The notes under the pieces were generated by a model, which was not told the origin of the DNA, ran no database searches, and saw only the letters and a list, made by a program, of their open reading frames with translations. Shown piece by piece: positions 3,001-50,603 of a stretch of DNA of 64,000 bases (positions are counted from its first letter, which is position 1; every line of letters begins with the position of its first letter). This stretch comes from Callorhinchus milii (Eukaryota): assembly GCF_018977255.1 (NCBI RefSeq), contig NW_024704749.1, positions 8,990,001 to 9,054,000 of the forward strand, read 5' to 3'. The position numbers and the translations under genes are program-made.

Positions 3001-6000
3001 TTTAGGTTCAGGTGACAGCAGCTCAGCAGGCCTGGGAGTTTTCTCAGCTGCAGAATATAAAGAAGGAAAAGCAAAGAGAATTAGAAGAGGACGAAAATGG
3101 CCTACTGTTCACCTATACCCGTGAGGACGCATACAATAAGGTGCCTATTACACTGAATATGTCAAAGATTATTTTCAGTTTAAACCAGTGGAGCTTGTTC
3201 CCGTCCCTATTCCCCCTGCGTTGTCTTGGCTCCTGTACTTAATGTGGCTGTTTCACTCTTAACAATCACAAACTGCCAAAAATCATATATGTTCTGATGA
3301 TCGCGGGTTGCTCAAACACTTGTACAGCACTTTGAATGTCACTTTTTGTAGTTCATCTGTTGAAAAAGTGGCTCTAAGCCACCCGATTGATGCAACTCTG
3401 GCACAGACTTGGTTAAACAAGAGGAGAATACGTTTATTACAAGATTTGGGATTAATAAGCAATCATGTTGGTGGAAAATAAAACGTCGTACATTATAATT
3501 CTTGTTTCTTTTTCTACATAAAGGAATATGTGAATGAAGGTGCAGATGGACAGAATGAAACAATGCCTGTGAGTTTTGGCGCAAATACACTTTTAAAAAT
3601 AAATGCAAGGATGTATAGAATTACTTGGGTTCTATATTAACTTCTGTCTGTGGTAGATTTGGACTCCTCCAACTCCGCCTCAGGATGACAATGACATCTA
3701 TATGGATCCAGTCATGTGCCTAATGTACGAGACAACAGCTATTGCAGAATCTAAACTTCCTCCGGTGTATGTCCGCAAGGAACACAAGAGACTAAAGCTG
3801 GACGCCTCTGGTGAGTAACATTTCCTTTAACTTAGGGGTTTTACAGCCAGAACTGCTTTACTCAATGATAAAACCATGAACCTAAAAATGATTCGTTCAC
3901 TTTATAATAATAATAATAATCCTTGCATTTGATATAGCGCTTTTCACGTCGGGAGGACGTCCCAAAGCGCTTCACAGAACACACTGTAAAGTGAATTGAC
4001 TGTATATTTGTGGGCGAACGCGGCAGCCAATTGCGCACAGCAATGTCCCACAAACAGTCGTAGATTGAAAATGACCAGTTTTTATTATTGTTTTGGGTTT
4101 TGGAGGGATTATTATTAGGCTCTGTGTGGAGTAAGGAAACTTGCCCAAGGTTTTGCCCTGACCTGCCTGGAATTGAACTCAGGTCTCTCGCTTGCAAAGC
4201 GAGTGCTCTAACCACTGAGCTATAGGACTCCACACTTAGTGTGGTTTCTCAAGAATAGCTGCCGTAATTAGAACAGACGTTTGCAACAACTACTCTGTTA
4301 AAGCGCCCTTCAACGTAATACTTCCTTGCTGTAGATCTACATGCATTAATTGACATCTCCAATGCATGAGGCATGAGGCAACAGCTACTGTGCCTCAGTC
4401 TACTGCTCAATACACCCAGGCTCCAGCTCTGACCGTCCAGCTTTCTGAACTAAAAAAAAATAGCTGACGTCTGATCTTTGAGTCGCGTGATGGGGCGGGG
4501 CGGGGGAGAGTTGGGGGTGGGCTGACTGTCACTGAATAGTATCGGACATCTTGGTTTCATTTGCAAAAAAAGAGAAAATTATACTAAAAATAATATTTTG
4601 GGTACTCAGATGACGTGACTTGCGAACCTGCAAAAAGTGAGACGAGGTGTATTTATTCTGTCAATGTAGCTGCTGGGAAGAAGTTCAAGAAAGCTCGACA
4701 TGGCGAGGCAGTGTCCCCTCCACGCTCACTGTTTGACAGGGCAGCACCCTGTATACTGAAGATGCGGCGGGAGGCGAAGGATCAGAAGAAGAACATGTTC
4801 CTGAAACAGCAGGCGCCGTTTGCAAAGCCTCTGCCATCGTTCAGCAAGCAAACTGTGGATGGAGGGCAGGACAGCCCCGAGTGGCTGATCAGTGAGGACT
4901 GGGCATTATTGCAGGTAATTCATCAACACACGTTATCCTTCAAGAACCTTCTCAAGACCCTCCTCTTCGACTTCTTTGGGCCTTCAGTCACCCTCTTATC
5001 TCCTACCCTCCTTCCCCCGCCCTCCACCCCACCTGATCCCAACCACCAACTCGGGTGTGGATCCTTGACTATCCAACGCCTTGGGACACCCTCTTGACGT
5101 GAAAGGCGCTATACGGATGTAATTTGTTGTTATTGTTGATGCAGAAAAAAGTGGATATATCATTGAATTTAACGTTGTAATTGAAATGTCTGCTGCTGCT
5201 GTTGTTGTCAGGCTGTAAAGCAGTTACTGGAGTTGCCTCTGAGCCTCGCCATCATCTCCCCCGCACACACACCCAACTGGGACCTCGTCAGTGATGTTGT
5301 GAACTCCTGCAGTCACATCTATCGCTCACCTAAACAATGTCGGAACCGATATGAGAATGTCATCATCCCAAGAGAAGAAGGAAAGGTACATGACCCTGGA
5401 ACTAGCTACAGATGCATTCATTGTCCAGTACATTCTGAGATAACTGTAATGTTTTATTGACTCCCACCTTAATTTAGAATTTTTCACAATTTATATCGCT
5501 TATATGTTTTGACTTTCGACATTGAGCAAATCAGTGGAGCATTTCCTATCTATTTATTTATTTGCAGTTGATATATGATGCTAATCCAAAGAAGAAAACA
5601 AAAAGCATTTACAAGGTAATTGCAAATGTATTCATTGTTGACCCTCAAATAACCATTTACTTGAATAAGGTACAAATCATAAACTTAAAGGGTATCTTTT
5701 TTTCTCAGACTAAAAACAGTCGTCCACTGCGAACTAGCCAGATCTACGCACAGGACGAGAGCGCAATGCATACGCAACGTTTCACAAGCCATTTCGAGCT
5801 GGTGAAGCTTATCGCTGGCAAAAGAAGTCCACCGATCAAACCTATGTAAGTGTTCTTCACGCTACGGTGAAAATGTTTGGTACTTTGAAGACAGTAAGCC
5901 CCACGGTGCGCCCCACACAAAGCTTATTGGAACATGTCACAAACCCCCTAAAATGACAACTTCCCGGTCAAATGTAACAACTCCACCAACACATTGCATT

Positions 6001-12000: not shown

Positions 12001-14589
12001 TCCTTACTTTCACACACCTCTGTTTACCGCGCAGCAAGTAGGAACCCGGTTGTTAGTCGATTTGCGGATCGCTTTTCTGAGGGTAATAATGCCTTCCAAA
12101 AAAATAATAATTTGATCACTCAATCCACGATTGTTTGTGGGACGCTGCTGTGCGTAATTGGCTGCCGCGTTTCGCCCACAAAATATACAGTCACTACACT
12201 TTACAGTATATTCTGTAAAGCACGTTGAGACATCTCGAAGACGTGATAAGGCACTATATCAAATATAAGGATTATTATTATTTATATTTTAAAATGTTTT
12301 ACTTTTTACTTCTTCCCCTCTTGTTTCCATTTAGAAAAATGCCTTGCTTTAAGATGCCAAGTTTGCAACTGTACAGTTGCAGATTTCATTATGACTGGAA
12401 CTAAGTCTTACAAGTGGTGCTGAGATTTTCTCTTTCTTTGCTTGGGTAGTGGGGACGCGGTTAGGTGACAAGATGTTGACAATCTCACTTACCCATTTAT
12501 ATTCACACTATCTGTGAAAGGATCCAACGGCAGATGCTGAGGTCAGAGCTCTCAAACTGTAGAGTGAAAGAGTTTGATGAAGGAGCTACACATGTTTTTC
12601 TTACTTGCCGACTATTTCAGATAACTGGCCAACCCCAACAACAGCAGAAAGTCACTTACGCACCACCTACTCAGCTCCAGCAAGGCCTCAAGCCGCAGTT
12701 CCTGAGCGTTGCACAGCCACAAAAGCAGAGTGGATCACAACCGATGCAGACGCAGATTCAGGTAAAATATGTTGCGAAAGTTATGTGCTAGCTTTGTCGA
12801 GACTGGTTTTCTTTTCTTATCTATGTGTATAAAATGTAGGCGAGTTGAAGGAGTATAAGATTAAAAACTTTAAAAATGGAGATACGATACCCGAGTTTGG
12901 GAAAACAACGGGGAAATAGGATTAGAGTAGATAGCTCCAGTGATAAGAGATGGTGAATATCATGTGTATATCAAATACTTCAACACGTGAACCCGACAAA
13001 ATTATTCCGCTGTGAAAGTTGAATGCTTTGTTGCCTTTGATTTGAGCAGTGAATGTCACGTCCTGTCACAATTCTAGAGTCACGGATGATGTAGATGGAA
13101 CAAAAACATTCACAACACTCGGAAGGGATCCTCATACTTATAATTTAATTATCTTCCCTGGACACAGATGCACAGGTCCATTAAGGGCACAGACTTAAAT
13201 ATCAATTTCATTTTGTTTGTTTTTTAATTGACTAAAGGTTCAGAGTTAACATAAACTTACCTTGTTCAATAGGTTACAAAGCTTCCACAGATGGTACAAC
13301 AAGCTGCTGTGGGAAATATCCAGCAGATGGTATCCACGGCACAACAGGTAAATTTCATCTGGTTTCTGGCACACGAAAACAATAGATGTTTGCGGATAGG
13401 GGGTGCAGTCTGTTGTAGTCTAAGCTGTGTGTCAGCCTGGCGCAGTGGTAGCACTCTCACCTTTGAATCAGAAGGTTGTGGGTTCAAGCCTCCAATGTCA
13501 GGACTTGAAATCACATACATTATTGAGTCCTGTAGCTCTGGTTAGAGCACTTACCTCGTGAGCGAGAGGACCTGGGTTCGATTCCCGGGAGGGCGAAACA
13601 TTAGGCAGGTTTCCTTATTCCACATGCCTCTGTTTACCTAGCAGTAAGTAGGAACCCAGTTGTTGGTCGATTGGTAGATTGCTTTTTCTTAAAAAAATAA
13701 TAAATTGGTCACTCACTTCACGACTGTTTGTGGGACGCTGCTGTGTGCAATTGGCTGCCGTGTTTCGCTCACAAAATATATAGTCAATTCACTTTACAGT
13801 ATATTCTGTGAAGCGCTTTGAGACGTCTCGAAGGCGTGATATGGTGCTGTATCAAATACAAGGATAATATTATTATTTTGAATGCAGTGCTGGGGGGATG
13901 TTGGGTGGTCAGAGGTGCCGTCCTTCAGATGAGGTCCCGTCTGACTGCGGACGTTAAAGATTCAATGACACTATTCAAAAAAAAGAAGAGTTTCTCTCTC
14001 CCGGTGTCCTGGTCAACAAATCCCCCAAATAAAATTGGTCACTCACCCCATGGCTGTTTGGGGGACACTGCTGCGCGCAGCTGGCTGTCACATTTCTCCC
14101 ACAAAATACAGCGACTCCACTTTATAGTATATCCTGTGAAACACTTTGAGATGTCTCAATGACATGATAAGGGGCTTTATGAAATGCAAGGATTATTATT
14201 ATTTATTGTTAAATAGCTGTGAAGTAAATAATCAAGTTTATGGATCAATGTTCTGAATTGGTTGACTCTATATCCCGAAGTACAGTACAATATATGGTTA
14301 GTTTATACCAAATGTGCCACCTTCTGTGTTTGTGTAGGGCCCTACGTTGCCCCAAGGAACCACAGGGCAACAAGTTCAAGTGATTCCGACAACTGCAACT
14401 GCTCAGGTTGTGCAACAGCAACTCATTCAGCACCAGGTCGTAACAGCAGCCTCGCCTCAGATCCAGACACCACCTCCTCAAAGCCCCGCTCAAACAGCAA
14501 CACCCTCTGAAGTCCAAGGTCAGCAGGCAAAAGTGCAAGTGCGTACTACCCCTGCAGTGAGACTGAAAGCTCCAACAAAACCGAACTGA
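1..14589 (+). CDS. EP400: E1A-binding protein p400 (SWR1/Domino-family chromatin remodeller), 3' part; 5' end lies outside the window
   Basis: 25 GT-AG exons that join in phase: 1-173, 342-453, 1475-1615, 2250-2411, 2657-2740, 3006-3140, 3524-3568, 3657-3810, 4670-4914, 5212-5385, 5568-5615, 5709-5845, 6406-6462, 6580-6658, 7287-7442, 8018-8063, 8147-8256, 8904-9102, 9844-9992, 10516-10617, 11142-11325, 11725-11849, 12621-12761, 13273-13347, 14338-14589 (TGA). Translation gives helicase-C motifs (DADTVVVYD..WCDRIG..DIHIYRLVSGNSIEEKLL), WTPPTPPQDDNDIY, the SANT-like PEWLISEDWALLQ..PNWDLVSDVVNSCS..CRNRYE segment, GMNPFQKNPK and the C-terminus VRLKAPTKPN, all matching recalled human EP400. Confidence 0.97.
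1128..1443 (+). mobile_element. tRNA(Ala)-derived SINE, short form
   Basis: Head GTAGCTCAGTGGTTAGAGCACTCGCCTCGCAAGCGAG..GGTTCGATTCCC (A and B boxes), Deu-like core GCTGTGCGCAATTGGCTGCCGCGTTTCGCCCAC, tail AAATGCAAGGATTATTATT. Many copies in the window. Confidence 0.9.
3904..4231 (-). mobile_element. tRNA(Ala)-derived SINE, short form
   Basis: Full-length antisense copy, nearly identical to 25712-26025. Confidence 0.9.
11911..12282 (+). mobile_element. tRNA-derived SINE, long form
   Basis: Same head, core and tail, plus an internal segment TCTGTTTACC..AGTAGGAACCCGGTTGTTAGTCGA. Confidence 0.88.
13430..14202 (+). mobile_element. Older Deu-domain SINE (SacSINE1-like) split by a younger SINE at 13525-13877
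   Basis: Head GTCAGCCTGGCGCAGTGGTAGCACTCTCACCTTTGAATCAGAAGGTTGTGGGTTCAAGCC at 13430-13522; body resumes near 13880 (GAGGTGCCGTCCTTCAGATGAG..CCGGTGTCCTGG) and ends in the same ATT tail. Confidence 0.75.
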
Positions 14590-15769: not shown

Positions 15770-16143
15770 CTCTTTGACCGTGCCTTCAGCTCCCCTCTCG
15801 ACTCTCTTCCCCCTCCTCGCTCCCTCCCTTCCCTCCCCTCACCCTGACCATTTCCCCCCTCCTTGCTCCCTCCCTTCCCTCCCCTCACCCTGACCATTTT
15901 CCCCCTCCTCGCTCCCTCCCTTCCCTCCCCTCACCCTGACCATTTCCCCCCTCCTCGCTCCCTCCCTTCCCTCCCCTCACCCTGACCATTTCCCCCCTCC
16001 TCGCTCCCTCCCTCCCCTCCCCTCCCCCTGACCATTTCCCCCCAATGCTCGGGTCATGACCCAACTGTGCAGCGCCTTGGGACGTCCTCCCGACGTGAAA
16101 GGCGCTTTATAAATGGAATCTTGTTGTTGTTGTTGTTGTTGTT
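15770..16143 (+). mobile_element. L2 LINE 3' end containing five 46-bp tandem units
   Basis: FDRAFSSPLDS-coding end, 46-bp units, stem-loop GCGCCTTGGGACGTCCTCCCGACGTGAAAGGCGC and (TTG)n tail. Confidence 0.85.
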
Positions 16144-16265
16144 GAGATTAAATAACGCAGGTCGCGTTCGACGGCAATCTTACCTGTCGTTAAAAATATT
16201 TTTAAAGCGTAAGCGTGCGGCCTTCGCTTCATGTAATGTACATATTGTTATCCCGGGTGTCTTTT

Positions 16266-16303
<38 letters not shown>

Positions 16304-16506
16304 TGTGCCATTCGTTGCTTCGCTGGTGCTGAGAATCGTTCCATTTGGATGTATTTCGCCCACGGAAAACACAGTCACTACACTTGACGGTGTATCCCGC
16401 CCAAGCGCTTCGGGACGCCTCGATGACGAGGCGCTGCAGCAAGCGTCAGGATGGCGGTGATGATGGTGGTGATGATGGTGAGAGCAGAGCAGCTGCTGAT
16501 CACAGG

Positions 16507-16588
16507 CACTTCCGGCCTCTGAGCCGGTGACGGAGGGTCGGGTCGTGACGTCAGTTCCGCAACGGCACGTGACCGGCAACATGGCGGC
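16507..16588 (+). promoter_or_regulatory. NOC4L CpG-rich proximal promoter
   Basis: ETS/GABP CACTTCCGG 16507-16515, CRE TGACGTCA 16546-16553, E-box CACGTG 16566-16571, and YY1-like AACATGGCGGC 16578-16588 overlapping the ATG. Confidence 0.7.
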
Positions 16589-19500
16589 GCCGAGTAAACT
16601 GCAGCGGCGGCTTCACGCGCTGTCGGCGTCGGTGCTCCACAACTGCCACAACTGCAACTCGGTGCTGGACATCCTGTGGCCTCTGAGGGTACCTGTCCCC
16701 CCCCCACCCCCGGGCCTCCCCGCCCACACCCCCCCCACCCCGGGCCTCCCCCCCCACCCCCACTCCCCCCCCCCCCACCCGGGCCTCCCCCCCACACCCC
16801 CCCACCCCGGGCCTCCCCCCCCCCACCCCGGGCCTCCCCCCCCACCCCACCCCCTCCCCCCCCCCACCCCGGGCCTGTCTCCCCCTCCCCCCCACACCCC
16901 CCCACCCCGGGCCTCCCCCCCCCACCCCGGGCCTGTCTCCCCCTCCCCCCCACTCCCCCCCCCCACCCCCGGGCCTCCCCCCCACACCCCCCCCACCCCG
17001 GGCCTCCCCACCCCCCACCCACCCCGGGCTCCACCCCCCCCAACCCCCCAGGCCTCCCCCCCACCTCAGGCCTGTCTCCCCCTCCCCCCCACACCCCCCC
17101 ACCCCGGGCCTCCCCACCCCCCCCCACCCCGGGCCTCCACCCCCCAACCCCCCAGGCCTCCCCCCACCTCAGGCCTGTCTCCCCTCCCCCCCACTCCCCC
17201 CCCCCCGGGCCTCCCCCCCACCCCACCCCCACTCCCCCCCCCCCCCCACCCACCCCGGGCCTCCCCCCCCCCCACCCCCGGGCCTCCCCCCCCACCCCCC
17301 ACCCCACTCCCCCCCCCCACCCCGGGCCTGTTCCCCCTCCCCCCACCCCCACCCCCACCCCGGGCCTCCCCCTCCCACCCCCACCCCCCCCACCCCCCGC
17401 CTGTCTCCCCCACTCCGCCTTTCTCATCTCTCCTCCCCACCCCCCGGCATGTCTTTCCTCTCCCCTCCCCCACCTGTGTCTCCCCCGTGCCCCCTCCTCC
17501 TGTATCTCCCCCCCCGCTGTGTCTCCCCCCCCTCCTCCTGTATCTCCCCCCCCCGCCTGTGTCTCCCCCCCCCCTCCTCCTGTATCTCCCCCCCCCCGCC
17601 TGTGTCTCCCCCCCCCCCTCCTCCTGTATCTCCCCCCCCCGCCTGTGTCTCCCCCCCCCCTCCTCCTGTATCTCCCCCCCCCGCCTGTATCTCCCCCCCC
17701 CCCTCCTCCTGTATCTCCCCCCCCCCCGCCTGTGTCTCCCCCCCCCCCGCCTGTGTCTCCCCCCCCCCCTCCTCCTGTATCTCCCCCCCCCCTCCTGTGT
17801 CTCCCCCCGTGCCCCCCCCCCCTCCCCCCCGGCCTATCCAGTGTAGAGCGAAAATCATAACGGGGGTCTTATCTCAGCAGAAATCTTCAGATAGAAAAAG
17901 TGCAGTTGTTCTTTTTTAAAAAAACAAAAAGGCCAAAAAAACACCGGTTTAGACGACCGCAAAATGTACAGTCGCCGATCCCATTGAGGGGTGGGGGGGG
18001 GGGGGAGGGGTGTCGTGTTGTTCAAGCACTTGTGTCACCTTTTGACGTATTAATTATTGGGTTATTAAATTGTTGTCATCAATACAGTCGGTCTGGTTCA
18101 CAACCGCTCAAGTCTATGTCTTGCATTCCCGTTAGGCCGAGAAGGAAGAAGCCGTTCTTGCCGCTGCAGGAACATGTCACGGGCTGTTCTGCACCCTATT
18201 GGAACGAGGGGCACTTTTTGTCGGTCAGTTGCCCGACGAGGAAACAGCTCTGACAGGTAATGAGCGGACGGATAGCTTTGCAGTCGATTTTACGAGTGCA
18301 ACTCGTCAGAGTGGAGCAGAGGGTGACGCGCAAAGGGTGGGGAGAGCAATTGTGTGGTCTCTGAGCCAGAGACCGCGTATCTTGTTGGGCTCCTGTGCAC
18401 ATTTCCTGAAGTAGATTCCTCCCTTCAACGAAGAGCCTGTGGCTCTACCAGTAATTTGTCAGCGCAGCAAGTGTTTATCAATGTTTTATCAGCAGGTTAT
18501 TCAAATTGGTTACCGTTAACACCGACCGGGGTTGGAAGGCTTATTTTTTCTGCTTGAATTCTGCGGTGTCGAGTTAAGGCCGTGATTTATTTTTTTTGTT
18601 GATTGACATTAGCACTCCTTCGAGTGCACTTGAATGACTGTGGGTGGAATATTGCTGTTCGCAATTTGGCAGCTGCATTCGCCCACAGATACAGTCGACG
18701 CACTTCACAGAAATGTCACGAAGCACTTGGTTACAGACGAGATATCAAATGCAAAGGATTATTATCATGTCGGAGCTATATTTTCACTTGTGTTTTTTAA
18801 TGTCTCCTGAATAAGAATTNNNNNNNNNNNNNNNNNNNNNNNNNTTCTCTCCCACCATCATGTGCTATTTGGTGCAATAGTGTTAACCCTAGCTCAACTT
18901 TCGTTAGCCTCACTCTTGGCAAGGGATGAAGTGTTTGGATGCCGTCATCACACATACTATTTTGGAGGAGAGATAGTTGAATATTTGCTGATGTGTAAAT
19001 ACTAAAGGTGCAAATGCTATTTCAGAGAATATCCAAACTTCTATAAAAAGCTCTACAGCTTGCTGAACCCATGTGTGTTCCACGTGAAGTACAGAGCAAG
19101 ATTCTTCCATCTAGCGGGTCTGTTTTTATCTTCCAGGTTAGTATTTCTTCATTTTATTTCCATCATTAACTGTAACAGCAGGTCTGATATTCATAAAGTA
19201 CAATATTCCAAATACACAAGTGGATAACGCTTGCTTTACAGAAAAGTACAATCATATGATAAAGTTTACCAACTAAGCAACAGTATTTCTTTTGCAATAC
19301 TAATTTCTGATACATCGCATCCTGCAATAATTTACTCACATACGTAGCGTTAGACTCGCCATTCAGTGGTGCAATGCTTACAAATACTGTAACAATAAGA
19401 TCCATTGATAATCTCTAGGATGCACTGACCTGTGGCTAAGCACCTTGGAGGCAGAGTTGGGTTCATAGAGTCTCTTTGCTGGCTTAAGACGCTGTGGCTG

Positions 19501-25711: not shown

Positions 25712-26025
25712 GGAGTCCTGTAGCTCAGTGGTTAGAGCACTCACTTTGCAAGCGAGAGACCTGAGTTCAATTCCAGGCAGAGGGCGAAACCTTGGGCAAG
25801 TTTTCTTACTCCACACAGAGCCTAATAGTAATCCCTCCAAAACCAAAAACAATAATAAATTGGTCATTTTTAATCTACGACTGTTTGTGGGACATTGCTG
25901 TGCGCAATTGGCTGCCGCGTTCGCCCACAAATATACAGGCAATTCACTTTACAGTGAAGCGCTTTGGGACGTCCTCCCGACGTGAAAAGCGCTATATCAA
26001 ATGCAAGGATTATTATTATTATTAT
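25712..26025 (+). mobile_element. tRNA(Ala)-derived SINE, short form
   Basis: Full length with A/B boxes, Deu-like core and (ATT)n tail. Confidence 0.9.
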
Positions 26026-30365: not shown

Positions 30366-30894
30366 CATGACATACCAGCCACCTTGAAGTTGTTGAGATC
30401 TGAGTCAAAATTCACTGATATGATTTGGACATAATTACTTTAAAGGAGTCCGAGATCTCTCTCTTGGCTAATGACTTAAATGTAAAACAACAAGAACAGA
30501 ACAAGGCCATTCGGGGTATCGAGTTTCTAAAACCCAGATATTCTATTCGTCCATCTTTTCTCTGTTTTCTCAATATTAAGTACAGCCTTTTTTACGTGAT
30601 TCAGATCAACGGCTTTCTGGGGCTTTCTGTTCCATAGTCTTTCAACTCTTTCTGTAAGTCGTTCTCTGGTTGCCACTATCACTTGTGTAACTCTCACTGA
30701 GTTCCTGAACTGGAGCAAAGAGTTGTTCCTTAATAACTTCGGAACAAAGGAGGAGGAGAGCGTAGGCACGATCGAATAGGAAGGTCTTCAGCTCAATCAG
30801 ACTCCCCCCACCCCCCCACCCCCGCCCTTCATCTGTACAATTTGCTTATTAACATTGTTTTTTTTCATGAAGGTACTCTATATAGGTTCCGAGA

Positions 30895-31857
30895 ATGTTA
30901 ACTACTCCAGCCTCCTACGAAAATTATTCAGACTATCTGTTGGAGATGGACGATGATTCGATTGCTGTCCTGCCGCTCGTGATTTACTCTGTGACCTTTT
31001 TGGTCGGAATCTCTGGAAACGCTCTGGTCATCTGGATCGCAACGCAGGAAGTAAGAAAGACAATCACCATGATATGGCTTTTGAATCTGTCAGTGGCTGA
31101 CTTCATGTTCACCGCCCTCTTGCCTTTTTCCATTGTGTATCAAGTAGAAAAGTTCCATTGGCCGTTTGGAAGTTTTATGTGCAAATTCATTAGTTTCGGC
31201 GTCCATCTGAACATGTTCACAAGTGTGTTCATACTGACCGTAACCAGCATTGATAGATGCCTTTCTGTTGTATTTCCAGTTTGGTGTCAGAATAATCGAA
31301 GTGTAAATTCGGCAATTATCGTGTCATTAGTTGTGTGGGTACTGGCTGCTGTAGTAAGCGTTCCTTTCTACCTTATCCGTGACACAGAAGAGGACCTGAT
31401 AATGGGGACGACGTATTGCCTTTACAAACAGGATCTGCTTAACCTCCGTAGCTTAATACTGGCAAGATTTACGTTGGGTTTCGCTCTTCCTTTTATTACA
31501 ATTGCCATTTGCTACACTGTCATCACCTTAAAGATCAAACGTAGGTGGAGAAGGGTGTCAACCAAACAGTGCAAAATAATCACTATGATCATCTTAGCTT
31601 TTCTATTTTGTTGGATACCATTTCATATTTTGAGTATAATCCACATGTTATCAGACGTTGACATTAAAACCTGGCTGCCGCTGGCTACCAGCTTTGCATA
31701 TGTTTATAGCTGCATCAATCCGATTCTCTACCTTTTCGCTGGTAATGGATTTGTGCTTCAATTCAAGAAAAGAATCCAAGCAGCACTGAGGGCAATACAC
31801 GATGAAATGAGCCACAGTAGTTCCAGGTCTGAGTCCAGGGGGGGTCAAGGGATCTGA
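30895..31857 (+). CDS. Intronless class A GPCR of the chemoattractant receptor family (chemerin receptor CMKLR1-like; relatives GPR1, C3AR1, FPRs), 320 aa
   Basis: Seven hydrophobic segments. Motifs GNALVIW, WLLNLSVADF, HWPFGSFMCK, LNMFTSVFILTVTSIDRCLSVVFPVWCQNNR, RFTLGFALPF, CWIPFH, SCINPILY. Acidic, Tyr-rich N-terminus with an NYS sequon. Exact orthology cannot be assigned by eye. Confidence 0.92.
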   Translation: MLTTPASYENYSDYLLEMDDDSIAVLPLVIYSVTFLVGISGNALVIWIATQEVRKTITMIWLLNLSVADFMFTALLPFSIVYQVEKFHWPFGSFMCKFISFGVHLNMFTSVFILTVTSIDRCLSVVFPVWCQNNRSVNSAIIVSLVVWVLAAVVSVPFYLIRDTEEDLIMGTTYCLYKQDLLNLRSLILARFTLGFALPFITIAICYTVITLKIKRRWRRVSTKQCKIITMIILAFLFCWIPFHILSIIHMLSDVDIKTWLPLATSFAYVYSCINPILYLFAGNGFVLQFKKRIQAALRAIHDEMSHSSSRSESRGGQGI

Positions 31858-33440: not shown

Positions 33441-36400
33441 TTTTTTTTGTTGGCCAAATGGAGCGTTTCCTTCCTGAGTTTGTAAAGCCGAATGGGTTTT
33501 GTTTTCACATGTAATCACGGGCCACATTGTGCGCAACCCATCGCAAGAGAAGGCAAACACAAGCAAACAAAGGAACGCACAGTCACTACACTTTGCGGCG
33601 CATCCTTGTGAGGCGCTTGGAGACGTCCCGACGACGTGATAAGGCGCTGTATCAAATGCCAGGATTATTGTTATTATTATGATGACTACTCTGTCGGTCG
33701 GCACAACCATGTTGCATATCCAAACCAGATAAGCTATCCTTGTCGTGGAATTTCCTGTCTCTGGAATGGAATGCACTCTCCCCCTCTCCCTTCGCTCTCT
33801 CTCTCCCCCTCCCTCTCTCTCTCTCCCCCTCCCTGCCTCTCGAGAGGGATGCACTCTGCTTGGGTAATTCCAGAGATTTGCCTGGTTACGAAGAGTGAGC
33901 GAGTGTGGTGATCCGCGCCTGCATTTCAGAGTGATAGCGTATCTGTCTGCGTATCGTGCTTTCGTTTCACAACCCTTGACTTTTGTACCTGTTTGTTTGC
34001 TTGTTCTGCTTTGCACGTTGGGCAATAGGTCAACAGCACAGCGAGGAGTATGCAAAGATTAATCCAAAGAGACAAGTGCCAGCAATAAAGGATGGCGACT
34101 TCACCTTGTCCGAAAGGTAAACAACACGCAAACTAGACTCGCTCTTTGTTCATCGATAAGTCCAAAAGAAAGAGAAGCTCCTCCTTGCTTTACAAAGAAC
34201 AAGAGTGCAGACCTGTTAGGGTTCAACAGCTTGATTTTGACGTGAACTGTACCGAAAACATTGTTGTGGAGTCCTGTAGCTCAGTGGTTAGAGCACTCGC
34301 TTTGCAAGCGAGAGACCTGGGTTCGATTCCCGACCGGGCGAAACCCTGGGCAAGTTTCCTTACTCCACGCGCCTAATAATAATCCCTCAAAAAAAAAATT
34401 GGTCACTTTATCCACGACTGTTTGTGGGGACTCTGCTGTGCGCAATTGGCTGCCGCGTTTCGCCCACAATCACACAGTCAGTTCGCTTTACAGTATATTC
34501 TGTGAAGCGCTTCGAGACGTCTACGAAGACTTGAAAAGCGCTGCATCAAATGCAAGGATTATTATTAACGATATTATTATTGCATCAGGTTGCTGCAGTG
34601 TAACAGCAGCTCGGTCGAGGAATTCCATCACCTGTTGCTATCAGACAGCCCGACCTGATCGGGGTTTGGAAATTTATTTTATCTGCTGATTGTGAAGCGA
34701 TTGAGAAGTTTCAGCGTTACAGTGTTTGCATAACCATCTGGTTACTGATGGTGGTCAGACCAGAATCTTAATATCCTGTCAGCCTGGCACAGTGGTGGCA
34801 TTCTCGCCTCTGAGTCGGAAGTTTGTGGTTTCAAGCCCCAACTTCAGCTGCTACCCATATCAAGCTACGCAGTTACTCACGGAGCACGCACGGAACCCGG
34901 GCACTTTATCTGATTCATCTCTTCCTCCTTCATCTACTTTGTCCTTCCCCTCTGAAGGAATTTTCCTAATTCCCTGCACTTCACCCTTCCTCTCTCTTTC
35001 CCCCTCTCTCTCTCTCTCTCTCTCTCTCTCGCTTCACTGGAGGACACTTCCTATCTGTCCCCAGGGAGCTTTCTCTCAGTCTTTGCAAAGTGCCACGTAA
35101 TTGCTGTTGGGAGTCTGATTCAATAATGGGGGGGGGGGGGGGGGTGGGGGGGGAAGGTATTTGGTCTTGTGTTGCTGCTGGGAACAAGTTATTATTATAA
35201 ATCAATTTATAATATATATTTAAATCAATTATACTTCGATTTAAAGTAGTTCCCTTGCAGTGTGGCCATTCTGAAGTATCTGGCTCGAAAATACCAAACC
35301 CCGGATCACTGGTACCCGAATGACCTCCAGAAACGTGCTCGTGTCGATGAGTACCTGGCTTGGCAGCACTCCACTGTACGCCCCCACGGTTCTAAAGTCT
35401 TCATGTTTAAGGTTAGACGATTTCCTCTTCATATTTGCAAAGCTTATCTTCAGATGTAGGTTGAGCACATCGTAACAACTAACCCCCAAACCGGTGTTGC
35501 ACATTGGTAAGTAGAGAAGAGTTTGCAGTCAACAAAACTGAGCAAGGCTGTTGACTACCAACCGGGTTCCTAATTATTCCTGGGCAAACGGAGGCATGTG
35601 GAGTAAGAAAACCTGCCTAAGGTTTCGCCCCACTCGGGAATCAAACTCGGGTCCTCTCGCTTGCGAGGCGAAAGCTCTAACCACTATACTATGGTGGTGG
35701 TGTTGGGGAGGTGGGGGGGAATATAAGACCTGTGAGCGCACATATCAGTTTCAAAGGCCACAGATATCTTTTGCCAAATAGAACAATTGATGGAGAAGAT
35801 AAAGAAGACATCTTAGATTCCCCACATTCATATATTCATTTCCCAGTGTGACTAATCCAAGCTAACAGGGAAATCTAGCATCTGGACATCAGTCGTTGTC
35901 TTGTTGCGCCATTCTGATTTGCTCCCAGCGCAGCACCGTGCATGCTGTCTGTGTTCTTTCTCTGCAGTTATTGCTCCCGGCATTAACAGGGGAACCAATT
36001 CCTGAAGTTAAAGTGCAAGCGGCTCTGGAAGACTTACGTGGAAGCCTGAAGACCTTCGAAGAGATTTACCTTCAGGATAAACCCTACATTGCCGGAGATG
36101 CTCTTACCATCGCTGACCTGGTTGCAATCGTGGAGCTCATGCAGGTCAGTCACTCTATGTCTTGGTTCCATTTTAGACAGTAAAACTCTTTATTTATTAG
36201 TAAAAGTCACTGCTTAACTTTTACTGTTAGATTAGGCGTATAAACTTGATTATCCAATCTATCAAGGTGCATTTGGAACTCCATGATGTTCAGTTGATAA
36301 AGGTAATCCATAAACATCAATGTCTGTATTATGTGACTATTATAATAATAATAATCCTTACATTTGATACAGCGCCGTATCACGTCTTCGAGACGTCTCA

Positions 36401-38837: not shown

Positions 38838-41415
38838 ATGGCTTTGGTGCTGTGGTGCCTGGCGCTGATCCACTGCGGGATCGCAGGACAGAATGCGACT
38901 GAGGAGCAAACCCAGATAGCTCGCGGAAAACTAATCGTGAGTATATTGTGAAGTGAATTGGTCGGATATTTGTGGGCGAAACGCAGCAGCCGATTGCACA
39001 CCACAGTGTCTCACAAACAGCCGTGGATTGTATCTGTCTCACAAGTGTGAGTGTGAGACAGGTACAGTTAGAGACGATGATCTGGGATGAGATTACTGAG
39101 CACTTGGGCCAAACATAAATTAGCACAGATTTGTATAAGACAGATTGTGTTGAAGCAGCCTTCTGGAATTCTTTAAAATTCTTTCAACCGGGTTAAACCG
39201 AGGTCTGTCTATGTAAAAAAAAATTACTGCTGCTTGTCCAGCAGAACGACAATTATTATTATGCGTAACTGAAATAAGATTGACTCGCCTCTGGGTTCCT
39301 GCGCTATTTATACTTTGTTTTAATCGATCCCCCAGTGCCTTCGCCGCTTTCTCCCTTTCCTCCTTCAAGGCCGGTCTCAAGACCTTTCTCTTTGACCGAG
39401 CCTTCAGCTCCCCTCTCGACTCTCTACCCCCTCCTCGCTCCCTCCCTTCCCTGCCCTCACCCTGACCATTTGCCCCCTGCTCGGGTCCCGACCCAACTGT
39501 ACAGCGCCTTGGGACGTCCTCCCTTGTTGTTGTTGTTGTTGTTTGAACAGGGTGTGGCAGTTGCTCCAGCCTCCACTCTTCTGACTTTTCCACATCTCTC
39601 TGATTTCTCCCCTTGGCTATAAACCATGGGAGTCTCTGTCTCAGGCTCTGAAGGTCTCGCTCATGCTGTTTTTCAGGCTCCAAGTTTGGTCGGATGACCG
39701 ATCAAGAAGCAGCCGGAGCTGTACCAATTCCTAATGGAACGCCTGGCGCTATAGTATCCTCCCTGTGACTGAGCAGCTGGGACACACAGCCCGTGACGGG
39801 GGGGGCGGAGGTGGGTGACACAGTGTATGGTTGGTGCCCGATATGGGGTGGCATAAAGAATGAGGGCACGGGGTGTGGGGATCAGAAGGTGTGGGGGTGA
39901 GGGGACACAGTGTACGCCACTCTGTAAGGAAACCCAATCTGGGGACTCCAACCCCACGTGAAGGACGCTATATAAATGCAAGTTGTTGTTGTTGTTGTTG
40001 ATTGCTGTGCGCTTAAACTCCGTGAGGAAGCTGAGGACCGCCCGAAATGTCCAATACATGTGACCACTTTCGAGCGCACACTGGGCCCTGTGTGCGGGGG
40101 CTGTTTAGAGCCAACCCCGATCCTCACACCAAACACAACCCCAAAAATTAACTCCCAAATCCTAAAGGCACTAATAACATCTGAACTCGAAAAATAACCT
40201 AAATGTTATCCCAACCCCTAATATGGCCCTAATATCAGTACCAAACCCTAAACACAACATTAATATCAGCACAAACCCTAAACACTGTACTAACATCAAG
40301 TCCTTGTCTGCTCAGAGCCAACCTTCCCCTCGGCTGTGAGCAGTTACCCCTCTCCCTGGGCTATCTATCTATTTGCTTAACTTCACCTTCAGCCACAACA
40401 TGGAGTATGAGTCCCGGGAAGACGAGGAGCCACGGTTTGTTTTCTACAATGTGGAGCAGGAGGTGGTGAAGGTCAGTGTCCAGTCACATCAACAGCACAA
40501 CTGCCACCACACGTCCTGAGCAGCTCAGCCACCAGCTCCAGCAAGCAATNNNNNNNNNNNNNNNNNNNNNNNNNNNNNNNNNNNNNNNNNNNNNNNNNNN
40601 NNNNNNNNNNNNNNNNNNNNNNNNNNNNNNNNNNNNNNNNNNNNNNNNNNNNNNNNNNNNNNNNNNNNNNNNNNNNNNAAATACGAATGCGTGTGTGTAA
40701 ATATGTGCGTAAATGAGTGTAAATGTGTGTGTGTGTGTGTGTATAACTATGTTTTTAAATACACGTGTGTGTGTGTGTGTAAATGGGTATGGGGTTAAAT
40801 ACAGTTTACATTTATACAATGCCTTTTGTGTTGAGAGGAAATCTCAAAGGCTTCCCAGTGTTGTTGTTGGCCGAGGACCTGAGCTGGAGGACAAAAGCCA
40901 AAGGGGGCAGCGAGGGGATAGGTAATCGCGGTAAATGTGTGCGTCGGTGAGTCTATGTGTGTCTTTGTCTGTGTGTGTGCGTGTGTGTGTATTTATGTGA
41001 CTATGCGCGCGTGTGTGTGTGTCGAACTCATCCACCCCCATCTGTTGTTTAAGAGGCACCTCCTTCCCCGTCCCTTATTTCGCCCACAAATACACAGTCG
41101 CTACACTTTACGGTAGAGCCCGCGGAGCGCTTTGAGACGTCTCGAAGACCCGATAAGGCGCGGTATCAAATGCGAGGATTATTATTATTATGATTATTAT
41201 GATTATTAAGCAGTGATTTGCTGTGTGGTGTGTGTGTGTGTGTAAGAAACAAGTCCACCTTCCTCTCACAGGAAGAGCTGGTGCAGGGAATGAAGTTGGA
41301 AGAGATGTCTGCTCTGCTCGAGTCGCTGGGATTCTACAGGAAATCAGCCAAGGGCGAGGAGGTTCCTGAAGAATTCCGGCATTTCCCACTCCGAGCTGCT
41401 CGGGATGAGCTGTAG
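38838..41415 (+). CDS. SELENOE: Selenoprotein E / Fep15 (SELENOM/Sep15 family), 132 aa, Sec at residue 40
   Basis: Exons 38838-38936, 39677-39753, 40393-40471, 41272-41415 join in phase to give MALVLWCLALIHCGIAGQNATEEQTQIARGKLIAPSLVG-U-PIKKQPELYQFLMERLALYHNMEYESREDEEPRFVFYNVEQEVVKEELVQGMKLEEMSALLESLGFYRKSAKGEEVPEEFRHFPLRAARDEL*. In-frame TGA at 39695-39697, hydrophobic signal peptide, RDEL terminus, SECIS downstream. Closely resembles recalled teleost Fep15 (APSVVGU..FLMERWALYHNLEY..LGFYKRSQKGEEVPEEF..RDEL). Confidence 0.93.
39330..39543 (+). mobile_element. L2 LINE 3' fragment in SELENOE intron 1
   Basis: SLSSFKAGLKTFLFDRAFSSPLDS coding end, one 46-bp unit and (TTG)n tail. Confidence 0.85.
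39695..39697 (+). other. SELENOE: Selenocysteine codon (TGA)
   Basis: In frame within exon 2 (GTC GGA TGA CCG ATC), at the position of U in the SELENOM CGGU motif; homology continues after it. Confidence 0.9.
39754..40392 (+). other. Probable U12-type (minor spliceosome) GT-AG intron
   Basis: Donor GTATCCTC (U12 consensus GTATCCTT); branch-like TTTGCTTAAC at 40372-40381 about 12 nt before the AG; short pyrimidine tract. Confidence 0.8.
40550..40678. other. Assembly gap (129 N) in SELENOE intron 3
   Basis: Run of N. The flanking exons join in phase, so no coding exon needs to be hidden here. Confidence 0.99.
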
Positions 41416-41441
41416 CCACGGTCACCTACGGACAGAGAATG

Positions 41442-41522
41442 GCTGGCAGGAAAGCGAGGATGATGTTAGTGTCTGAAAGGCGGTGACTCCCTGGCATTGG
41501 CGGAGAAGTTGCTTCCTGCAGC
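41442..41522 (+). promoter_or_regulatory. SECIS element (form 2) in the SELENOE 3' UTR
   Basis: Helix I GCAGGAA(A)GCGA / TTGCTTCCTGC; core ATGAT 41460-41464 / GGAG 41502-41505; helix II GTTAGTGTCTG / CTGGCATTGGC; apical AAA 41476-41478 plus mini-hairpin GGCG-GTGA-CTCC. Confidence 0.9.
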
Positions 41523-41534
41523 TGAGGTTCTCGT

Positions 41535-41540
41535 AATAAA
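41535..41540 (+). terminator. SELENOE polyadenylation signal (AATAAA)
   Basis: Canonical AATAAA 12 nt after the SECIS. Confidence 0.7.
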
Positions 41541-44500
41541 TTGACTACTGCTAACATCTGTGTGCGCTGATCTTAGTTTTCTTTGGCTCTTGGTAAGTCC
41601 AAGGACACCATCACCAAACCCCCCCCGCCCCCCCACAAAACACACACACACACACGATCCTGTTTGCCTGTTCTTTTCGGGGCCCTGCCACATTCCCGCT
41701 GAGAACGGGTTTAAATGCTTTGCAGATGATTCCGACCAGCCAGGGAACGTTCAGTGTCGATTACGGTAAAATGGGAAGCACATGTGGGGAGATGATCGCT
41801 GGGACTCTTTCGTGGGGGCCAGGCACCCTTCGCTGACTTGCGTCCGTCCCTCCCTGTTTTACCTTCCCGAAACTTCTCCTGGGTGTCGAACGCCTCCACC
41901 GGGTTTCCTCTCAGCCCTCTCCGACGCTCAATGAAGATAGCTCTTTAGTGTCGAGACCCGAAGCTCTCATCCCACCCCCCCCACCCCCACCCCCGTCACT
42001 CACCCCTACTCACCCCCCAAATAACCCGCGTTCGACAATGCAGTGCTGTGCGTTATTATCACCACTCTCCACCCCCTCCTGATCCCGACCGCCAGCAGAT
42101 CTCTGACGGTCCAGCGCCCTGGGACGTGCTCCCGACGCGAAAGGCGCTATACCGATGTAATCTTGTTGTTGTTCTTGTCGTTGAACTCGAGAGATTCATT
42201 CTTCGGGCCCTTCATCATCATCATCATCATCATCATCAACATCCCGGTGCAGTAATCAGCTGAGATCCAGAGTCGAGCCACCAGAGCAATTCTCCCAACA
42301 CACCACAGGATGACACTCTTCCCCCAGCTTTAACTCATCCTTTTCTCACCAGCGCACACTCTCTCTCGCTCGCTCGCTCGCTCGCTCTCTCTCGTGGCTG
42401 CCACTCAGAAGCCAGACACATTCATCAAGCGGAGAGAGAGTGGCTGCAGTATCCACAGACACTGGGTTAAAATCAGGCTGTTGAGGAAAGACAGTTTGCT
42501 GTTTACATAGAGTTAGCCTGTTAACACATGTACCCCCCAGTGACTCCTCAAGCCTTACACCAGCAGAGTTGACGGCTATTTTTTTTCTTAACCGGGTCAT
42601 TTGTCTAAATTATGTCACAGGCAATGAGGGAAGTGCTTAAGAAGCTCAAATGAAGGGTTTAGCTTTAACTGTGACACTTGTCTATCTCATTCTTCCTCAA
42701 AATAACTGCCCACTCCCACCCCACCCTCCCCCCCCCCCCCCACTCGGACCGCTGAGAAACTCTGTATCCACCTTTAACCCCTTCAGGGGCTCAGCGTGTG
42801 AAACTCACGCACACTCACTCCCCTCACTCGCGCTCGCTCACACTCAGACTCCCTTACGCGAGATAAGGCGCTACATCAAATGCAAGGATTAATTAAATAA
42901 TTCAATAAATAAATAGGCCAAAGGGAACTTCTTCAACCAAACCCCGTCTTGTGGTCTTGCCTGTGGCTGCCCCCAGCAGGCACTGGAGCTGAGTTGCGAT
43001 CGCAGGCAAAGGCAGAGTTGTCAGTCACTACTGCAGCTTCCCGATCCGCTCAGTTACAGACGTCAGTTTCAGTGCCGTTATTGAGGGCCTAACACGAGTT
43101 GGTAAAGTGAATCGGCGAAGAAAGGCAGGAGCTGCATTGGGAGCTGCCGTGTTTCAGATGAGGCCTCCGCCCTGAGGTCTTGTGTGCCTGTTTATCAGGT
43201 GGACGTCACAGACCGTTTGAACACCGAAGATTGGACTCGTCACTGTTCAGGAGGTGGACTACAGGGAGGGTAAGGGGTAGGAGGGGTGGCCGATCGCGTG
43301 ATCGTAGAGGAGGGTCTCGAGATGTGGTTCAGGCTACAATGCTGCGGTCGTGATGTTACTCCAAGTACAATTGTCTACGTGGCAGAAATTGGACGTGAAG
43401 ACAAGACACCCGGAAGGTGTAAGAGTCGGTCCGATCTCTCTAGTCGCTCCTCTCTCACTTGGGGTCCAATCTCTTAAGTTCCTCCTCTCTGGTTCGGCGA
43501 GGTACTCAGTGGAAGGGCACGAACCGACTGGAAAGAGTCTTTGGTGTGATGTATGTAACCGCCCCGTCACTCTTGATCATTCACTCACGGTGACAAGAGT
43601 AGTCCAGGAAAACCACATTATTTGTACTATTACGAAAATGTTAATAATTTTTAAATTGTTCCTAATCTGACAAGGAAATTGGATTTATAGTAATTGTGTT
43701 TGACTTTTTCTGAGGGCGATGACAAGGTATAAAGCCTGTGTAATTATTCAATGTACATTTGAATGGCCCTGGGTGATTATCGAATCACTACACCAAAACC
43801 CTCCGAAACCTTAAAAGGGAAACACAATCTACGGGATAGCGATCAGTAAGAAAAGAAACAAGTTTTGAGCAAGTTTGACTTTTTAAAAAAAAAAAGGGCT
43901 GTTGCTTTGTTTGTTGACACTCGAACCGCGACTGTTTGCGGGGACGCTGCTGTGCGCAATTGGCCGCCATGTTTCGCCCCCACTATATATATATATATAT
44001 ATACAGGGAATTCACCTTACAGCATATTCTGCGAAGCGCTTTGGGACAGCTCGAAGACGTGATGAGGCGCTGTATCAAAGGCAAGGATTGTTATTGTTAT
44101 TATTGTATATTAACGCCAAATTATTGCTGTCAGTTGAAGTCAATTGACATCTCGCTGTGACCAAAACGTGCAAATTGTCAGCACCTGAGACAAAGAATGA
44201 GCTCAGCGGCTAATGCACAAGTCCTTACTTGTCCTGAGCAAAGTTGGAACAAATTAAAGATCTGGCCCTAATTTAACTCAGTCAATCACAGGCTCCACAA
44301 TTGTTGCTCAGGCCTCAGCAAACGGGTCCTAGAGCTCCAGCAAAAGCGAGGCTCCTTTTACACAGCAACACAACAAGAGGTGACCCACCCCACGGACATC
44401 TCTGAGACGATGGGGCTTTTCAACCAGGTTAGTAGAAATAAGTTATTTTCCCCGGTCACCAGAGAGCACAAATTTAAGGTAATTACAAAAAAAATCAAAG

Positions 44501-49626: not shown

Positions 49627-50360
49627 CAACAACAACAACAACAACAAGATTCCATTTATAGAGCGCCTTTCACGTCAGGAGGACGTCCCAAGGCGCTGCA
49701 CAGTTGGGTCATGACCCGAGCAGGGGGGAAATGGTCAGGGTGAGGGGAGGGAAGGGAGGGAGCGAGGAGGGGGAATGGTCAGGGTGAGGGGAGGGAAGGG
49801 AGGGAGCGAGGAGGAGGAAGAGAGTCGAGAGGGGAGCTGAAGGCACGGTCAAAGAGAAAGGTTTTGAGACCGGCCTTGAAGGAGGAAAGGGAGGAAGCAA
49901 GGCGAAGGCACTGGGGGATGGAGTTCCAGAGCCTCGGGGCTGAGAGGCTGAAGGCCCGACCACCGATAGTAGGGCGGTTGGGGCGGGGGACGTGGAGCAG
50001 ACCGGAGCCAGAGGAACGGAGGGTACGGGCAGGTACTTGGGGGGATAGTAGGTCGGAGAGGTAGGAGGGAGCAAGGCCGTGAATGGCCTTGCAGGTGAGG
50101 ATGAGGATCTTGAAATCAATCCTCTGGGGGATGGGGAGCCAGTGGAGGCGAGCGAGGGTGGGAGTGATGTGGTCCCGAAGCCTGGTGCGGGACAGTACAC
50201 GAGCTGCAGAGTTCTGAATGACCTGCAGCTTGTGGAGGGAGGTGGCGGGAAGGCCGGCGAGGAGAGAGTTCCCATAGTCCAGCCTTGAGGTGACAAAGGC
50301 GTGAACCAGGGTTTCAGCAGCGTGAGGGGTGAGGTAGTGCCGTAATCTGGCGATATTCCG
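49627..50360 (-). mobile_element. 5'-truncated L2 LINE with uninterrupted ORF2 C-terminus
   Basis: Minus-strand frame RNIARLRHYLTPHAAETLVHAFVTSRLDYGNSLLAGLP..LQVIQNSAARVL..HITPTLARLHWLPI..GGRAFSLSAPRLWNSIP..FKAGLKTFLF, then 3' stem-loop and (TTG)n tail. Confidence 0.93.
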
Positions 50361-50603
50361 CCAAACAATCTGGCGGTTGTTTTGAGAGTCTGCTCTACTT
50401 CTCCGACAGTCAGTTGTTCCCCACTGAGCCTCGTTAAAGAATTTATGTTGCTGTAATCTTTGTCAGACGTCAGTTGCATGGCGTCTATTGTTCACTTTAG
50501 CCACGCAGTCACTCATCCCCAGGTCACGCATGCACGCGCACACACACGCGCGCGCGCGCGCGCACTCCCCCACCGTGTCGCGCGCACGCACTCCCCCACC
50601 GTG

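Follow-up and report, generated by a model that had tools for sequence, protein, structure and literature searches.

In the 64,000-nucleotide stretch of Callorhinchus milii DNA analysed here (the window), the hairpin at 41442-41522 is, on sequence evidence, very probably a type II (form 2) SECIS element, likely directing selenocysteine (Sec) insertion at codon 40 of the SELENOE gene. It is the SECIS core, the helix lengths and the apical adenines, together with a place in the 3′ UTR of a UGA-bearing SELENOE gene, that make this role likely. An earlier, sequence-only reading had proposed a form 2 SECIS serving SELENOE, and the proposal is supported by the gene model, the SECIS pattern, the Rfam alignment, the transcript footprint and the position of the element in homologues. 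As such elements go it is ordinary and belongs to a well-known kind, and Sec use by SELENOE in cartilaginous fish has already been reported. The result supports annotating the gene as a UGA-read-through selenoprotein and leaves the known picture of Sec insertion unchanged.

Table 1. Features of the SELENOE gene and its predicted SECIS element, in window positions.
Feature	Position	Strand	Basis
SELENOE coding exon 1	38838..38936	+	ATG; GT donor, phase 0; matches homologue N-termini
SELENOE coding exon 2, carrying the in-frame TGA	39677..39753	+	21/25 identical to homologue P0043, TGA read as C
In-frame TGA, codon 40, predicted selenocysteine	39695..39697	+	falls on the Cys of frog homologue P0016 and of P0043
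SELENOE coding exon 3	40393..40471	+	12-15/26 identical to each of 12 homologues
Coding part of last exon, RDEL-TAG end	41272..41415	+	73% identity over 45 residues to Heterodontus 'selenoprotein e'
3′ UTR, about 135 nt	41416..41550	+	end of the run X5 contig (RNA status guessed)
Type II SECIS element, whole (predicted)	41442..41522	+	pattern match, shuffles, folding, Rfam alignment
Helix I, 5′ arm, with two single-base bulges	41442..41457	+	pairs with 41509-41522; most probabilities 0.96-1.00; bulge registers ambiguous
5′ core AUGAU (conserved A + UGAN)	41460..41464	+	sequence; aligned to AUGAc of the Rfam model
Helix II, 5′ arm, first pair G-C	41465..41475	+	pairs with 41491-41501 (folding)
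Unpaired AAA, 11 nt above the core	41476..41478	+	A41476/A41477 unpaired, probability 1.00/0.99
Apical helix III and loop, GUGA-capped or in shifted register	41479..41490	+	folding; Rfam alignment
3′ core GGAG	41502..41505	+	K-G-A fit the consensus; last base G, not W
AATAAA polyadenylation signal	41535..41540	+	sequence; X5 contig ends 10 nt downstream

Read from the sequence, the SELENOE (Fep15) gene consists of four exons with GT-AG junctions and a 133-codon frame, the sole internal stop of which is the TGA of codon 40 (39695-39697) and which terminates with RDEL followed by TAG (41413-41415). The exon 1 product has a hydrophobic N-terminus with a predicted signal peptide, as judged by eye. 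All four exon peptides are collinear with the frog homologue P0016, the TGA lying on its Cys. When exon 4 was used in a HMMER search, 20 proteins were recovered, the best match being the Heterodontus 'selenoprotein e' (73%), and the remaining named matches came from fish and frogs and were labelled 'selenoprotein M-like' or hypothetical. No homologue emerged among the 33 candidates of a word-based search in which exon 4 was compared with longer proteins. The Pfam domain Sep15_SelM (PF08806) is present in all three homologues scanned, above the cut-off in two of them, and gave no match to the four single-exon SELENOE peptides scanned separately. An assembly gap (N) at 40550-40678 falls in intron 3; because it is confined to the intron and the alignment runs from exon 3 straight into exon 4, no exon is missing from the model. 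The identity of the gene as SELENOE/Fep15 follows from its closest homologues, which are SELENOE proteins, from the Sec/Cys motif and from the C-terminal RDEL.

A pseudogene with a nonsense TGA, in which the hairpin would be a relic, is extremely unlikely. Nothing speaks for it directly, although expression hangs on one contig for which the RNA status was guessed. Against it, the single internal stop coincides exactly with the Sec/Cys position, the gene keeps an intact frame and intact splice sites, conservation extends through the exons downstream, and, according to the available parts of the published accounts, Sec-containing SELENOE is known in cartilaginous fish (PMC3316567), Fep15 having Sec in the elephant shark and Cys in frogs (PMC3316567; PMC13134290).

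Annotation of this family is poor: SELENOE is well annotated in <1% of Ensembl cases, according to the available part of PMC12822975, and the shark and teleost SELENOE records P0001, P0044, P0046, P0048, P0049 and P0055 are mis-annotated, with a Met start placed after the UGA or with the UGA region skipped. The teleost homologue P0043 (Metynnis hypsauchen) has Cys at the SELENOE Sec position. Published accounts, in the portion of PMC13134290 available, give Cys forms of SELENOE for frogs only, and the P0043 Cys reflects either a change from Sec to Cys that has gone unreported or a substitution introduced in the database.

The transcript footprint was taken from run contigs compared over 41246-41615 in four runs; the SELENOE stretch is present in five of the 24 sequencing runs listed, none of which is recorded as RNA. 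The X5 contig, from a single study and with its RNA status guessed, covers 41271-41550, starting at the splice acceptor and stopping 10 nt beyond the AATAAA. Both of its ends are on independently predicted exon limits, which fits a mature mRNA, and it is probably RNA. The contigs of runs X3 and X4 extend into the intron and past 41550. The fourth run, X7, which comes from another organism, gave no contig over the interval, a result that carries no weight. The element is identical in all three runs that cover it, and the sole difference, at 41561, is outside the UTR. The sequence-only reading had placed the AATAAA about 125 nt into a 3′ UTR made up mostly of SECIS. From the end of the TAG (41415) there are 119 nt to the start of the signal and 125 to its end, and the element, which starts 26 nt past the TAG, accounts for 81 of the ~135 UTR bases, as that reading had it.

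Partition-function folding of the UTR located the AUGAU/GGAG core of the sequence-only reading at 41460-41464 and 41502-41505, its G-U-rich helix II of 11 positions with one U-U mismatch at 41465-41475/41491-41501, and its unpaired AAA at 41476-41478; AUGAU is the sole AUGA in the UTR. The 11 positions of helix II are GC, UG, UG, AU, GU, UA, GC, UG, CG, UU and GC, which amounts to four wobble pairs and the U-U mismatch, with pair probabilities of 0.95-0.98 for the lower nine and of just 0.21 for the top G-C. Helix I, drawn previously as GCAGGAA/UUCCUGC, is present at 41446-52/41513-19 but is longer than that. Two further stems rule out a helix of 7 bp only: GCU/AGC on the outer side, with pair probabilities of 0.96-1.00, and GCGA/UUGC on the inner side, at 41454-57/41509-12 (0.96-0.98). 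With the inner stem the internal loop is reduced to 3x3 nt, versus 8x7 in the earlier drawing, and the extended fold reaches -30.4 kcal/mol versus -21.4 for that drawing, a gain of ~9 kcal/mol. At the apex, the GUGA (GNRA) loop proposed earlier was found at 41483-41486, but the mini-stem that it caps is only one of two near-equal registers, with a probability of ~0.25 (-30.4 kcal/mol) versus ~0.49 (-30.8 kcal/mol) for a shifted register. Both registers are type II and both leave A41476-A41477 unpaired, and the Rfam SECIS_1 alignment takes the one with the GUGA loop. G41479 is paired with a probability of 0.98, and folds with the apical helix are 2.4-2.8 kcal/mol better than those without it.

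To place the hairpin against SECIS patterns, the strict and default SECISearch patterns were re-implemented from the PMC3753652 supplement, in a version separate from the SECISearch program itself. The strict pattern has three matches across both strands of the 64-kb window, among which the element ranks first in stability, with an upper-stem energy of -10.6 kcal/mol against -1.4 and -5.6 for the other two. Among 20,000 dinucleotide shuffles of the 135-nt UTR, 51 matched the strict pattern and three did so as stably. Shuffling of the whole window (100 shuffles) gave a mean of 3.6 strict matches versus the three observed, and 14 of the 100 contained one as stable. The pattern is therefore at chance level across the window, and its significance derives from the position of the match in a short UTR that needs a SECIS. 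Folding energy alone is modest (z -2.26, 8/200 shuffles as stable). It is from this chance-level count and this low z that one could argue for a chance hairpin, with the true SECIS located further downstream in a longer UTR. We consider that very unlikely: every other strict or default match lies at a distance of >9 kb and has a less stable upper stem, a second element would not fit before the contig end at 41550, and the homologue UTRs described below put a SECIS at an equal distance from the stop.

Rfam also aligns the element, though weakly, to its SECIS model. On the 86-nt stretch around the element, SECIS_1 (RF00031) was the best of three matches and was aligned over its full length (model 1-64), with AUGA, AAA and GA in register. 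The score was 16.9 bits against a gathering cut-off of 35, with an E value of 0.37 over 4227 families, so that the Rfam check suggested by the sequence-only reading gave nothing at the cut-off and a full-length alignment below it. At the gathering cut-offs, the 64-kb window gave only five tRNA-like matches and no SECIS, and with E up to 10 the 401 nt of 41300-41700 gave four unrelated chance matches and no SECIS. Checked by hand against the SECISearch3 filter limits, taken from the available part of the PMC3753652 supplement, the element has a GA/GA core, no bending, an energy below -4, an apical part of 15 nt (limits 8-30) and a stem of 11 (limits 7-15), and so passes every item checked. Scored by hand without the Covels term it reaches 3 points, which would correspond to at least grade B. 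A credible vertebrate SECIS may thus score far under the Rfam cut-off. In the Fep15 family, the Infernal model is reported to recover the zebrafish SECIS at 20 bits or more, whereas neither the default nor the loose SECISearch pattern finds it (PMC3753652 supplement, available part), and these misses indicate that atypical fits occur in the family. In the literature that could be read, searches turned up neither a printed SECIS sequence of SELENOE for comparison nor an account of this particular element, and SELENOE terms had no match in the supplement text of PMC13134290.

The core deserves separate consideration. The consensus is UGAN on the 5′ strand and KGAW on the 3′ strand (PMC3753652, available part; PMC2647825), and the invariable part is UGA/GA only (PMC2647825). 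The sequence-only reading had GGAG departing from UGAN, which is the consensus of the other strand; measured against KGAW, only the last G (41505) is off. Nor is GGAG off-consensus at its first base, since G41502 falls within K. The mismatch at W is not disqualifying, because UGA/GA alone is invariable.

The core can also be set against the preferences of SBP2 known from SELEX. In the available text of PMC1874613, the pair atop the tandem was mostly U-U or U-C and once G-U among seven RNAs, a G-C pair there nearly abolished binding, and selection favoured a purine-pyrimidine next pair, A and U before the tandem, and large internal loops. The C. milii element agrees with those preferences in having A and U ahead of the tandem and a G-C pair above the quartet. 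The fifth pair, in the numbering of that paper, is U-G where purine-pyrimidine predominates, and the small predicted internal loop (3x3) runs against the preference for large ones. A literature search found no published case of a U-G quartet mutation. The strengths of human SECIS elements span several thousand-fold, and the signature of weak elements is a G-C pair together with a U three bases before the AUGA (Latreche 2009, PMC2761289, available part); here the base in question is A41457.

These features bear on a sub-case of the main reading, in which the SECIS is functional but weak or drifting, with reduced SBP2 binding and termination at the UGA by most ribosomes. The low Rfam score of 16.9 bits points that way, and so do the small internal loop, the many G-U pairs of helix II and the U-G pairs around the tandem, as well as the SELEX preference for U-U or U-C atop the tandem, the better binding of larger loops (PMC1874613, in the part available) and the wide range of strengths among human elements (PMC2761289, likewise). 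Set against them are the G atop the tandem, which lies within KGAW, the A at 41457 where the published weak signature wants U, the last 3′ core G, which is also implied in homologues, and the frame beyond the UGA, which is intact and conserved. On balance we regard a weak or drifting element as unlikely, while giving it appreciable weight. Three departures are likely to be variation that is tolerated: the wealth of G-U pairs in helix II, the U-G atop the tandem, and G as the final base of the 3′ core.

Homologue UTRs provide a comparison for both position and core. Two scans for orthologous DNA in metagenome contigs gave 598 and 457 pattern matches, none of which was confirmed. Four homologue protein records run past RDEL, and three of them continue with W, which suggests that the gene caller read through a TGA stop and translated the UTR. 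These tails were tested for SECIS elements by codon-consistent back-translation with 300 shuffles each; P0052-P0054, which belong to the P0003 cluster, were not counted apart. A SECIS-compatible arrangement was found in three of the four tails, namely those that continue with W, with 0, 1 and 0 of 300 shuffles reaching the score and with the core purine 38, 46 and 37 nt past the stop, versus 44 in C. milii. The P0011 tail gave no SECIS signal by the same procedure (218/300 shuffles as good). For P0019 the implied 3′ core is UGAG in each of the three best placements; for P0010 it is UGAG again, with an alternative that scores almost as well, and for P0003 it is CGAC. One clear and one probable case of three thus imply G as the final core base. 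Being degenerate sequence from records that resemble bony-fish SELENOE, the tails support the position of the putative element and offer a lead on its core.

It is conceivable, but in our judgement rather improbable, that the SELENOE SECIS represents a gene-specific K-GA-G sub-type common to cartilaginous and bony fishes that, together with a hairpin around the UGA, tunes Sec insertion. If true, the sub-type would offer a natural experiment on the role that the base facing the flipped-out U plays in SBP2 binding. A 9-bp hairpin predicted at 39685-39706 (+) carries the Sec UGA in its 4-nt loop; its z is -3.26, with 0/200 shuffles as stable, and 134 of 5000 synonymous recodings were as stable. 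A second predicted hairpin, at 39708-39750 (+), begins 10 nt past the UGA (76/5000 synonymous recodings as stable). The exon 2 hairpins could be an SRE-like recoding aid or could have arisen by chance.

If the element works as the established pathway would have it, a kink-turn bound by SBP2 would form at the tandem G.A/A.G pairs (41462-63/41503-04), with U41461 as its presumptive flipped-out base. SBP2 and eEFSec would then bring Sec-tRNA to the UGA 323 spliced nt upstream. The predicted product is a thioredoxin-like precursor of 132 residues belonging to the Sep15/SelM family, which would begin with a signal peptide and end in RDEL. We take the RDEL end to be an ER-retention signal, and the signal peptide was judged from sequence.

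Upstream of SELENOE, the window contains a single-exon chemerin/C3a-receptor-like GPCR gene (7tm_1) at 30886-31857 (+), which over 30895-31857 is 52-63% identical to shark, 50-55% to ray and ~40% to teleost proteins. These values place the host among the cartilaginous fishes, probably outside sharks and rays, and not among the teleosts. In Heterodontus and in Rhincodon, the best match of the GPCR and selenoprotein e are on contigs of equal length, which suggests that the linkage between the two genes is conserved. Five near-identical tRNA-like heads (1133-1193, 4158-4229, 13526-13596, 25718-25780 and 34270-34341) are above the Rfam tRNA cut-off, have poor acceptor stems and are probably copies of a tRNA-derived SINE. 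Repeats recognized by eye at 49779-50462 (-) and 39322-39545 (+) comprise a LINE fragment that resembles reverse transcriptase and related pieces ending in (TTG)n tails, one of the LINE-related pieces lying in SELENOE intron 1. A second assembly gap (N) is at 18820-18844. The block at 16001-18000 (GC 0.69, GC skew -0.51) differs from the rest of the window and is probably a simple repeat.

Compared with SELENOE/Fep15 of sharks, exon 4 of the chimaera protein has diverged (33/47 identical), and the frog homologues P0016 and P0037 have Ala or Ser after the Sec/Cys position where the C. milii protein has Pro. Relative to known type II SECIS elements (RF00031; PMC3753652, PMC2647825), the element differs in the last 3′ core base, which is G and not W, in its predicted 3x3 internal loop, in the four wobbles and the U-U of helix II, and in its score of 16.9 bits versus 35. 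Like them, it is located in the 3′ UTR of an mRNA (the RNA contig being a guess) with an in-frame UGA at the Sec/Cys position, at a distance from that UGA well above the minimum of ~51-111 nt (PMC3753652, available part). It has the UGA/GA core (41460-63, 41503-04) with an unpaired purine, A, ahead of the UGA, and helix I beneath the internal loop. Helix II starts with a G-C pair and has 11 positions including one mismatch, where 11-16 bp are described (PMC2647825), and above it are the unpaired apical AA(R), here AAA, and the additional apical helix III that characterizes type II elements.
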